Below are positions 3,392-4,412 of a stretch of 64,000 nucleotides of DNA, piece by piece (position 1 is the first letter of the stretch; every line of letters begins with the position of its first letter). The position numbers were made by a program, and so were the translations under genes. The stretch comes from a virus: the IMG/VR virus record IMGVR_UViG_3300031555_001876; one strand, written 5' to 3'. The notes under the pieces were generated by a model that worked only from the letters and a program-made list of their open reading frames with translations, was not told where the DNA came from and did no database searches.

Positions 3392-4412
3392 TAAACCTTT
3401 TCCGTTTCATCAACGGGGTTTATGAATTAAAATTCATAGGCTAACGGGGAAACCTGACCGCATAATGGCGAAGGCAATCCCGTGGGAAATTATTTAAACT
3501 ATTTAAAAAAAATAAAGAAAGGAGGATAAAAATGATTGGAATTATTTATAAAGTAACAAATAAAATAAATAATAAAATATATATAGGTTAGAGTATAAAT
3601 ACTTTAAACCGAAGACGTACAAATCATTACTCTTCAGCAAGAAATCATAATAATAATTCAATATTTCATAAAGCATTAATGAAATATTCTAAAGATGATT
3701 TCACTTGGGAGATTGTAGAAACAATTTCTAATAATAATATAGAGTTATTATAGAAAGAATTAAATGAGAAAGAATGCTATTTTATAAAATTATATGAATC
3801 TAATAATTTAAATAAAGGATATAATATGACCGCTGGTGGCGAAAGTTTTCAAGAACAAGCACAAAATTTTTGGGATGATCCAAATCGAAGTGATAGTTGG
3901 AGAAAAGAATTAAGTAGCCGAATGACAAAATATTGGTCTGATGAATCCCATATAAAGCATTAGAGTGAGCAAATGAATAAATTTTATAAAACAAAAGAAG
4001 GACAAGAAAAAGCCAAACAACATAGTAATTTTATGAATGATTATTATAATGGTGTTAACGCAAGAAAAAATAAGGCTAAAACTTCTCATTATTTTATAAA
4101 AGCAATTTCTCCAAATCAAGAAGAGTTAATTTTTATTTCATCTAAAGAGCCTGATTTATATTTTAATAGAAAAATAAATTTAAGGGCTAGGCTACATCAA
4201 GTTGGAGACATATGGATTCCAACAACTAGATGTCCTCATTTATATGGATGGAAATTTGAAGCAATAGAAAAATATGAAATAGTTTAAATAAAAACCTGTA
4301 ACGACTATCTCCGTATCGGGAGAGTAGGGGTGCTATTGATACGCACTTCGAAATGGGTTTTGTAGATTTTAAAAATCTATTAAGATATAGTCTGTCCCAT
4401 TAGAAATAATGG
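3392..4412 (+). mobile_element. Group I intron (phage T4 td/IA2-like layout) with a homing-endonuclease ORF inserted between the Q and R elements (P6 region).
   Basis: Lies between two protein-like halves of one structural gene. Core elements occur in canonical order: P-like AACGGGGAAAC 3443-3453; Q-like GCAATCCCGTGGG 3474-3486 (P and Q can pair CGGGG/CCCG); R-like CTGTAACGACTATC 4296-4309; S-like AAGATATAGTCTG 4382-4394; P9-like hairpin CCATT-AGAAAT-AATGG 4397-4412 ending in G. In-frame stops TAA 3392 and TAA 4407 fall inside the intron. Exact splice sites are not resolved. Confidence 0.6.
3532..4287 (+). CDS. GIY-YIG homing endonuclease (intron-encoded), 251 aa, 3 in-frame TAG.
   Basis: ATG 3532 follows AAAGGAGG. 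N-terminus reads MIGIIYKVTNKINNKIYIG-TAG-SINTLNRRRTNHY, i.e. the GIY...YIGQS motif with TAG at the invariant Gln. TAG at 3589, 3751, 3961. TAA stop 4285-4287. ORF-track 3973..4287 is its 3' part. Confidence 0.85.

Follow-up and report, generated by a model that had tools for sequence, protein, structure and literature searches.

Group I introns have been described in phages that reassign stop codons. Those of the recoded crAss-like phages (Delta and Zeta groups) interrupt genes for the capsid and further core functions, and open reading frames (ORFs) that need suppression have been reported in such introns (PMC7886860); for the TGA-recoded Agate phages it was proposed that recoded stops in an intron endonuclease delay its synthesis (bioRxiv 10.1101/2021.08.26.457843). 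Within the group I class, subgroup IA2 is defined by two hairpins, P7.1 and P7.2, lying between P7 and the 3' strand of P3 and linked by G-U-A (PMC3428280). Here we analyse the viral record IMGVR_UViG_3300031555_001876, a single stretch of 64,000 nucleotides (nt) that we call the window, in which the sequence between positions 3374 and 4421 splits a giant fibre-like gene. Very likely, this insert is a group I intron that is mobile, belongs to subgroup IA2 and holds in its P6 loop an ORF for a GIY-YIG homing endonuclease. It shares with the T4 td intron and its endonuclease I-TevI the order of the core elements, the P7.1-GUA-P7.2 arrangement and, looped out of P6, a GIY-YIG ORF preceded by a ribosome-binding site of its own. 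The intron is apparently intact and well formed and is nothing out of the ordinary within a familiar class of mobile elements; its splicing, its homing, the activity and target site of its endonuclease and the timing of expression are what we infer from the sequence. A group I intron in a very large fibre-like gene, with core elements in canonical order and a td-like position of the endonuclease, had been put forward from the letters of the window (the original prediction), and these points were borne out by the ribozyme core, by covariation, by contiguous homologues and by protein family matches. The coordinates of all the features are collected in Table 1.

Reading Frames and Exon Junction of the Host Gene

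With TAG read as a sense codon, frame 2 of the window meets no stop between base 2 and the TAA at 3392-3394 (1,130 codons, four TAG), and frame 3 is open from 4410 to 7013 (868 codons, three TAG). Both halves matched PHROG 14959 (2,494 positions) in a collinear way, the tail of the upstream frame at positions 1119-1306 and the downstream frame at 1543-1993. Moreover, when a provisionally joined sequence was used as the tblastn query, 37 phage records were retrieved, in 26 of which a single match covered at least 80% of the query. The best match, which was contiguous over the junction, was a 1,673-residue protein of phage NatCom_3357: exon 1 aligned with it at 36% identity over 1,005 residues, ending at residue 961 of the homologue (...PYDFDTAIGIN), and exon 2 aligned from residue 960 onwards (INNEG...). 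The overlap of two residues is due to the presence of ATTAAT at both intron borders. Since the two halves match one protein family collinearly, intron-less homologues are contiguous and a metagenomic relative carries an intron at the same site (see below), the two frames can be read as one gene of more than 1,988 codons interrupted by an intron, rather than as two genes.

The alignment to intron-less homologues, proposed with the original prediction as a check, gave a contiguous reading and set the junction at 3373|4422. This junction restores PYDFDTAIG|INNEG, which is the most conserved stretch in an alignment of 16 homologues, and an intron-less homologue has an uninterrupted PYDFDTAIGINNEG at this point. 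It is the only solution with U as the last base of exon 1 and G as the last base of the intron that also keeps the frame and agrees with the protein alignment. Other 5' sites (3385, 3391 or the TAA) and 3' sites (G4412, G4418) were discarded, as they did not restore AIG-INNEG or broke either the U/G rule or the frame. The predicted ligated junction in the RNA is GCGAUUGGU|AUUAAUAAUGAAGG (...GCG AUU GGU|AUU AAU AAU GAA...), with 4422 as the first base of exon 2, and the spliced message, reading ...EHWFPIPYDFDTAIG|INNEGKLVFDYDLED..., has 1,988 open codons, six of which are TAG (seven if the intronic TAG at 4416 is counted). Thus the interval of 3392-4412 first assigned to the intron was right in placing an intron there, but its ends were off by about 10-20 nt; likewise, the flanking frames ending at 3394 and starting at 4410 are indeed open, but these positions are not the exon borders, the upstream frame running 18 nt inside the intron before it meets its stop.

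State of the Insertion Site in Homologous Genes

Homologous genes show a presence/absence polymorphism at this one site, which is either empty, or occupied by an intron without ORF, or by an intron with ORF. It is empty in three loci (L001, L003 and L004) and in the database protein P0001. The motif is unbroken in intron-less homologues of 49-69% identity, and two IMG/VR loci (63% identity) and P0001 (69% identity) are contiguous at the junction. In the metagenome scaffold L022, the homologue is 73% identical and a 308-nt insert devoid of ORF occupies the identical site, with borders GCA ATT GGT|AUGUAAUAAUGCC...GGAUUAAAACG|ATT AAT AAT GAA GGT (...ACG|ATTAATAATGAAGG on the exon 2 side). As these borders are without sequence ambiguity, L022 fixes the junction. 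Its two ribozyme halves match those of the window at 70% and 77% identity, and compensatory changes are seen in P3, P7.1 and P8 as well as in the first of the peripheral hairpins that lie between P3 and P4; an in-frame TAA lies at intron bases +4 to +6, and the insert aligned end to end with the Rfam model Intron_gpI (32.8 bits, E = 1.4e-6). A second scaffold, L023, has the identical 5' intron border, and its contig stops before the ORF position. The intron with ORF is found in the window, in L024 and in L025; because two further contigs show the arrangement of the window, this is not an assembly artefact.

The polymorphism bears on the possibility of a fractured gene, in which two independent genes would flank a free-standing homing endonuclease gene and no RNA splicing would occur. 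In favour of it, an ATG at 4419-4421 stands in the downstream frame, and gene callers report the parts as separate proteins. However, the break separates two neighbouring residues within the best-conserved motif of what is probably one CotH-like fold, and the intervening sequence is a ribozyme with covarying helices. L022 keeps this ribozyme but has neither the endonuclease nor an ATG where exon 2 begins, position 4419 is not preceded by a Shine-Dalgarno sequence, and the separate calls stem from applying the standard code to a TAG-recoded genome. We therefore regard a fractured gene as highly improbable. The AUG itself, which makes up the last three bases of the intron and is in frame with exon 2, is probably a coincidence and not an alternative start, since ORF-less L022 has ACG there.

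In L028, where the fibre gene homologue is 55% identical, a different insert of about 0.8 kb (4384-5190) lies 2 nt downstream of the position that the window intron occupies. Its borders are GGG AU|...G|C AAU AAC GAA GG, and its ORF encodes an HNH/I-HmuI-like endonuclease. By eye, we could recognise P1 with a U·G pair, P10, P4-P6 and P7-P3'-P8-P7', without P7.1 and P7.2; the insert had no Rfam match. On sequence grounds it may represent an independent invasion of the same motif.

Structure of the Ribozyme

In the splice-site helix P1, the internal guide sequence corresponds to 3379-3388, and the first 7 nt of exon 2 pair at 7 of 7 positions with 3379-3385 to form P10. The 5' strand of P3 comes directly after P1, upstream of two hairpins that are followed by P4, both in the window and in its relatives. 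P4 and P5 are the P and Q elements of the original prediction and are homologous to the td stretch CUAAACGGGGAACC...CAAUCCCGUG. In two relatives a GC pair of P6 is replaced by a compensating CG pair, and in the P6 extension each of the 11 pairs covaries. P3 to P9 thus follow the group I order with the P3/P7 pseudoknot, backed by covariation, and the assignment to subgroup IA2 is made because P7.1-GUA-P7.2 corresponds to the criterion given in PMC3428280. As for the 3' end, a P9-like hairpin ending in G had been proposed as the intron terminus: the hairpin is there, but nine more intron bases follow it, the last of them being the terminal G4421. In the relatives the 3' splice site lies 8-11 nt past P9, with a G before it without exception.

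Some alternative assignments were considered and dropped. A canonical, td-like P3, in which the bases just 5' of P4 would pair with the 3' strand, was only 32% paired, which is the level of shuffled alignments. An automatic search for the longest pairing had given P1 as UUGGU/GUUAA; the GCC retained instead aligns with the covarying guide of all relatives. Finally, GGAU..GAUG, seen at the 3' ends of the relatives and resembling a conserved intron terminus, is really exon sequence coding for the DxDG of a Toprim domain.

Folding and Covariation

To analyse the fold, an ORF-deleted RNA was built in which 3500-4281 was swapped for a tetraloop. It folded at −83.9 kcal/mol (z = −4.65) into a structure containing P1, the two hairpins, P4/P5, P6 with a 10-bp extension that closes the ORF loop, P7.1, P7.2, P8 and P9. 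Relatives were collected by an exact search for the 19-mer CUAACGGGGAAACCUGACC, which gave 17 IMG/VR loci, and by blastn, which added Enterococcus phage VRE9_3; the covariation alignment (A1) was made of the ORF-deleted constructs of ten relatives. From it, RNAalifold predicted 68 pairs, 45 of which show compensatory changes, the long-range P3 included. When P7 was added as a pseudoknot (73 pairs), 92.8% of the cells were paired against 72.8% in shuffles, and the covariation score was 0.552 against 0.181, with none of 500 shuffles scoring as high; in a control in which the partners were slid by 1-3 columns, the score was at most 0.157. P4 and P7 are invariant and thus carry no covariation information, while P3, P6, P7.1, P7.2, P8 and P9 covary. 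Moreover, the guide covaries with the exon over six host sites (GGU/GCC, GCU/GGC, AGGU/GCCU, GAGGU/GCCUC, AGGGU/GCCCU and GGGGU/GCCCC). All members of the intron family have the U·G pair at the 5' site and the G at the 3' end, and the window keeps all the invariant core nucleotides of the family.

The presence of a group I core with the IA2 hallmark also bears on other kinds of intervening element, namely an intein, a group II intron or a translational bypass (hop). Inteins and further insertions are abundant in gut phages with a recoded stop (PMC7886860); here, however, the two sides of the insert stand in different frames and the insert contains a stop, so that it is not an intein, and neither domain V-like features nor a reverse transcriptase are present. 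We find such an element scarcely credible at this locus.

Rfam Scores and Points against an Active Intron

The check suggested with the original prediction, a search with Rfam Intron_gpI (RF00028), turned out unfavourable in formal terms. In a local search over 3300-4500 (1.2 kb), the model matched 4231-4413 with 31.3 bits (E = 7.5e-6), covering P7, P8, the AAGAUAUAGUC strand and P9, and did not reach the gathering score of the family, which is 50 bits.

Several observations weigh against the group I intron proposed here. The intron misses the Rfam gathering score, and a search of the window at that score returned only transfer RNAs (tRNAs); in E-value mode, a search of the whole window did not list the intron at E ≤ 0.05. 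The covariation alignment consists of hand-trimmed, ORF-deleted constructs of ten mutually related sequences. Exon 1 contributes no more than 3 bp to P1 (GGU/GCC). Finally, the 5' strand of P3 is set apart from P4 by two hairpins, unlike in td, so that the fold is not a textbook one.

The low score does not appear to be decisive. As a control we used a T4-type td intron in its genomic form, with the I-TevI ORF (L026, 1996-2226), which scored 42.5 bits, also below 50. Because this ORF-bearing form of a proven intron fails too, a sub-threshold score is not evidence against the intron in the window, and the gathering threshold is uninformative for ORF-bearing IA2 introns. The unusual placement of P3 probably contributes to the low score, as the Rfam alignment of L022 marks non-canonical pairs exactly there. 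At the gathering threshold, 18 related loci also gave tRNAs only.

The sub-threshold score and the short exon part of P1 would both fit a decayed relic that no longer splices, in which case the fibre gene would be a pseudogene or an N-terminal fragment ending at the TAA at 3392. Against this, all helices are intact in the window, which also retains every core nucleotide that is invariant in the family; both exons are long open frames conserved up to the last codon on each side; identical copies occur on several contigs; and the endonuclease ORF is intact, as is typical of a young, active element. On this balance, we judge a relic very unlikely and keep to an intact group I intron.

The GIY-YIG Endonuclease and TAG Recoding

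The ORF in the P6 loop has its own Shine-Dalgarno sequence, AGGAGG, at 3520-3525. The count of three TAG made in the original prediction proved exact: they are in frame at codons 20, 74 and 144 of the 251, as compared with six in the 1,988 codons of the spliced host gene. With TAG read as Gln, the product scored 26.8 bits with Pfam PF01541, whose cut-off is 22.6, and matched PHROG 314, "homing endonuclease" (1.6e-25), and its motif positions (I-I-Y, Y-I-G-(TAG)-S, an Arg cluster, Glu and G-Y-N) could be aligned with homologues. The first TAG (3589-3591) falls in the YIG-Q motif, where four homologues have Gln (YIGQS/T) and two have Lys. The related endonucleases of the relatives lie in P6 as in the window; those of L021 and L011 have a TAG at the identical YIG codon, and several other relatives contain further in-frame TAG. 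The C-terminal half of the window endonuclease is unlike that of most relatives. From the alignment of TAG with Gln and from the same-codon TAG in L021 and L011, TAG most likely encodes Gln and this endonuclease lineage appears to live in TAG-recoded phages. In addition, the fact that three genes, in different phages and in different host genes, share the YIG-TAG-S codon suggests that the lineage has spread among TAG-recoded phages and was not recently gained from standard-code sources.

The window phage reads TAG as a sense codon. Many long ORFs of the window are open only when TAG is sense, and are ended by TAA and TGA. A tRNA gene with a CUA anticodon (Table 1) was observed within a tRNA gene cluster at 17795-19349, and the translation of both exons and of the endonuclease would require this tRNA.

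In the same region, at 19052-19185 (+), a full-length tRNA match was obtained with Rfam (42.1 bits, model positions 1-71) over 134 nt. It has an insert of about 60 nt near the anticodon arm and an encoded ACCA end, and was not called by ARAGORN; judging from its sequence, it may be an intron-containing tRNA.

The Host Protein

The predicted spliced protein has an N-terminal part with LYK repeats, a probable CotH-kinase-like domain, leucine-rich repeats and DUF6273. The last of these had been foreseen and was confirmed near the C-terminus of exon 2 (50.8 bits); the leucine-rich repeats, also foreseen, appeared both in homologues and among the fold matches. It is the probable CotH-kinase-like domain that the intron splits, and this domain was absent from the list first proposed. 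The spliced central domain had no match in Pfam or in PDB sequence searches. Instead, 10 of 16 homologues (41-69% identical) matched PF08757 (CotH), and one of them is named CotH kinase family protein by NCBI. The AlphaFold model of P0001 (the 69%-identical homologue; predicted local distance difference test, pLDDT, 81.2) matched the Bacillus cereus CotH structures 5JDA and 5JD9 with E of about 5e-10 and a target template modelling score (TM-score) of 0.71-0.74, and its next structure matches after CotH were leucine-rich-repeat proteins. On the basis of this model, the intron site would lie in Y-D-x-D-T-A-I-G-I-N-N-E-G, an invariant motif of the CotH-like kinase fold; that this motif is the metal-binding site is our conjecture.

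As for the function of the protein, the gene neighbourhood suggests that it is probably a tail fibre, as first assigned, or a receptor-binding protein. The homologue in L001 (phage NatCom_3357) follows tape-measure and Dit genes and precedes a holin gene; that in L022 adjoins an Mtd_N protein, and that in L027 a weak BppU_N match.

Other Features of the Window

Downstream of the split gene, at 8334-17711 and 21899-24808 (−), there is a run of large fibre-like proteins, most with only PHROG matches of unknown function; two of them share the pattern G(L/F)VPAP..GDE.KYL.GDGTW and one is glycine-rich. Further on, a TROVE/Ro-like RNA-binding protein is encoded at 36435-38006 (PHROG 850, 4e-129) and a nicotinamide phosphoribosyltransferase at 41525-43306 (PHROG 448, 4e-143), and a protein identical to that of exon 2 is also recorded on a 185.5-kb contig. 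These two genes and the length of this contig suggest a large phage genome. No close relative emerged among deposited phages when 25 kb of the window served as a megablast query, and a scan for promoters and terminators over 3200-4600 gave nothing exceeding chance.

Table 1. Coordinates of the features of the split gene, of the putative intron and of the suppressor tRNA gene in the window.
Feature	Position	Strand	Remarks
Exon 1 of the giant fibre-like gene	2..3373	+	Open frame; 4 in-frame TAG; 3' end ...GCG AUU GGU; gene start beyond the 5' end of the window
Putative group I (IA2) intron, 1,048 nt	3374..4421	+	A3374 to terminal G4421; homologue junction, Rfam E = 7.5e-6, covariation
P1 hairpin	3371..3388	+	GGU|AUUA (3371-3377) with UAAUGCC (3382-3388); U3373·G3386 wobble at the 5' splice site
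In-frame TAA stopping the exon 1 frame	3392..3394	+	Intron nt 19-21; overlaps the start of the P3 5' strand
P3 5' strand, AAACCU	3393..3398	+	With GGGUUU 4355-4360; RNAalifold long-range helix; AU/CG/UA covariation at 3 pairs
Two peripheral hairpins, P3 5' strand to P4	3402-3416, 3417-3442 (span 3402..3442)	+	97-100% paired, compensatory changes
P4 enclosing P5	3444..3483	+	P4 ACGGGG 3444-3449 with UCCCGU 3478-3483; P5 3453-3474; invariant in 10/10 relatives
P6 5' strand GGG and extension	3484-3486 + 3490-3499 (3484..3499)	+	Pair with 4295-4297 and 4282-4291; close the ORF-holding loop
GIY-YIG homing endonuclease gene, P6 loop	3532..4287	+	ATG 3532, TAA 4285-4287 within the P6 3' strand; 251 codons
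P6 extension and P6, 3' strands	4282..4297	+	ORF-deleted fold and RNAalifold
Catalytic core, 3' half	4303..4392	+	Rfam alignment; covariation in P7.1, P7.2, P8
P7 5' strand, GACUA	4303-4307	+	With UAGUC 4388-4392
P7.1	4308-4323	+	Covaries
GUA linker	4324-4326	+	Invariant in all ten relatives
P7.2	4327-4349	+	Covaries
P3 3' strand	4355-4360	+	With 3393-3398
P8	4363-4379	+	Covaries
J8/7 and P7 3' strand	4380-4392	+	UUAAGAUAUAGUC
P9 hairpin and 9-nt tail	4397..4421	+	P9 4397-4412, 100% paired, 5 covarying pairs; tail AUUUAGAUG to terminal G4421
Exon 2	4422..7016	+	Begins AUU AAU AAU GAA GGA (INNEG...); 2 in-frame TAG; TAA stop 7014-7016
tRNA, anticodon CUA (amber suppressor)	18826..18900	+	ARAGORN; Rfam tRNA 43.5 bits

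Proposed Mechanism and Implications

From this anatomy, the transcript would fold into a P1-P9 ribozyme. In the first step, an external guanosine would attack after U3373, which forms the U·G pair of P1; in the second, the freed 3'-OH of exon 1 would attack after the terminal G4421, with P10 aligning the exons, and the ligated message would encode a single protein of more than 1,988 residues, with a mass above 220 kDa. In the unspliced RNA, the TAA at intron nt 19-21 would halt the ribosomes coming from exon 1 before they enter the core. As for mobility, the endonuclease would cleave the fibre gene of co-infecting relatives that lack the intron, and the intron would be copied into the cut allele during repair; enzymes of the GIY-YIG class generally cleave at a distance from the point of insertion. 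Since its gene contains three TAG codons, the endonuclease would be translatable only with an active amber-suppressor tRNA, and in its absence translation would yield just a peptide of 19 residues; the host gene would be equally constrained.

Published cases already include introns of recoded phages, introns that interrupt structural genes and introns whose endonucleases are themselves recoded, and the current understanding of group I introns is unchanged by this case. Whether the locus is anything beyond one more phage intron is a more tentative matter, and we regard the following two proposals, which do not exclude each other, as possible and rather doubtful. According to the first, synthesis of the endonuclease is conditional on the suppressor tRNA, the mobile element being adapted to, and regulated by, the alternative code of the phage; if so, cleavage and homing would be confined to the phase of infection in which the code switch is on. 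According to the second, the intron RNA belongs to a widespread and uncurated IA2 sub-architecture, which has no P2 between P1 and P3 but places its hairpins after the P3 5' strand and ahead of P4, and which the Rfam gathering score misses; this placement of the peripheral hairpins has possibly not been described before.

Under the standard code, and without awareness of the intron, this gene of more than 1,988 codons is called as at least five fragments, and domain searches miss the probable CotH-kinase-like domain, which is cut exactly in its most conserved motif. In the same way, scans at the gathering threshold will systematically miss ORF-bearing phage IA2 introns, as the 42.5 bits of the td control indicate. 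The four states found at one motif (empty, intron without ORF, intron with GIY-YIG ORF, and an unrelated endonuclease-bearing insert 2 nt away) illustrate the homing cycle compactly, in a natural setting and in phages that have not been cultivated, and the TAG-dependent endonuclease could serve to examine the idea that recoding of stop codons governs when selfish genes are expressed.

Comparison with Known Systems

The nearest relatives of the intron are those in IMG/VR and in Enterococcus phage VRE9_3 (L002 and L005-L021), which contain the same 19-mer or a close variant of it and share all the helices, including the unusual placement of P3; their 3' halves are 72-86% identical. Most of them also hold a GIY-YIG ORF in P6, several of these being TAG-recoded and two having a TAG at the YIG-Q codon. 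They differ in their hosts, which, as read from the flanks, are replication genes, with the insertion in TDA|DxDG, EG|DSA or LRG|K of Toprim/topoisomerase genes, or in SG|QIEQD of DnaB. At least two introns of this family occur on single phage contigs in L012, L014 and L021; in L012 (reverse strand), those at 2252-3319 and 3554-4615 lie in EG|DSA and TDA|DxDG of one Toprim/topoisomerase-like gene, about 230 nt apart.

With the introns of recoded gut phages (PMC7886860; bioRxiv 10.1101/2021.08.26.457843), the locus shares a host gene of core or, here, probably structural function and reassigned stops within the intron ORF; for this reason, the claim that introns are uncommon in phage structural genes is weaker than was originally made. 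The published introns differ in having been recognised through protein domains, and in lying in genes for the major capsid protein, PolB, primase and similar proteins. Neither a fibre or CotH-domain host gene nor the RNA family of the window was found described in the excerpts consulted of these two sources.

The T4 td intron offers the closest comparison at the level of the core. Near-identical motifs are CUAA(A)CGGGGAA(A)CC, CAAUCCCGUG, AACGACUAUC, GAGUAGGG, CGAAA and AGAUAUAGUCUG, and the 3' half of the window core is 59% identical to that of a T4-type td intron; in both cases, an in-frame stop is found soon past the 5' splice site and the insertion falls in a highly conserved coding motif. 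On the other hand, td has the order P1, P2, P3, J3/4, P4, with the 5' strand of P3 abutting J3/4 and P4, and the 3' end of the window intron is short (P9 and 9 nt), without P9.1 and P9.2. Moreover, td interrupts a gene of nucleotide metabolism, whereas the host gene of the window is probably a structural one with a CotH-like domain, and, unlike I-TevI, the endonuclease of the window would require amber suppression.

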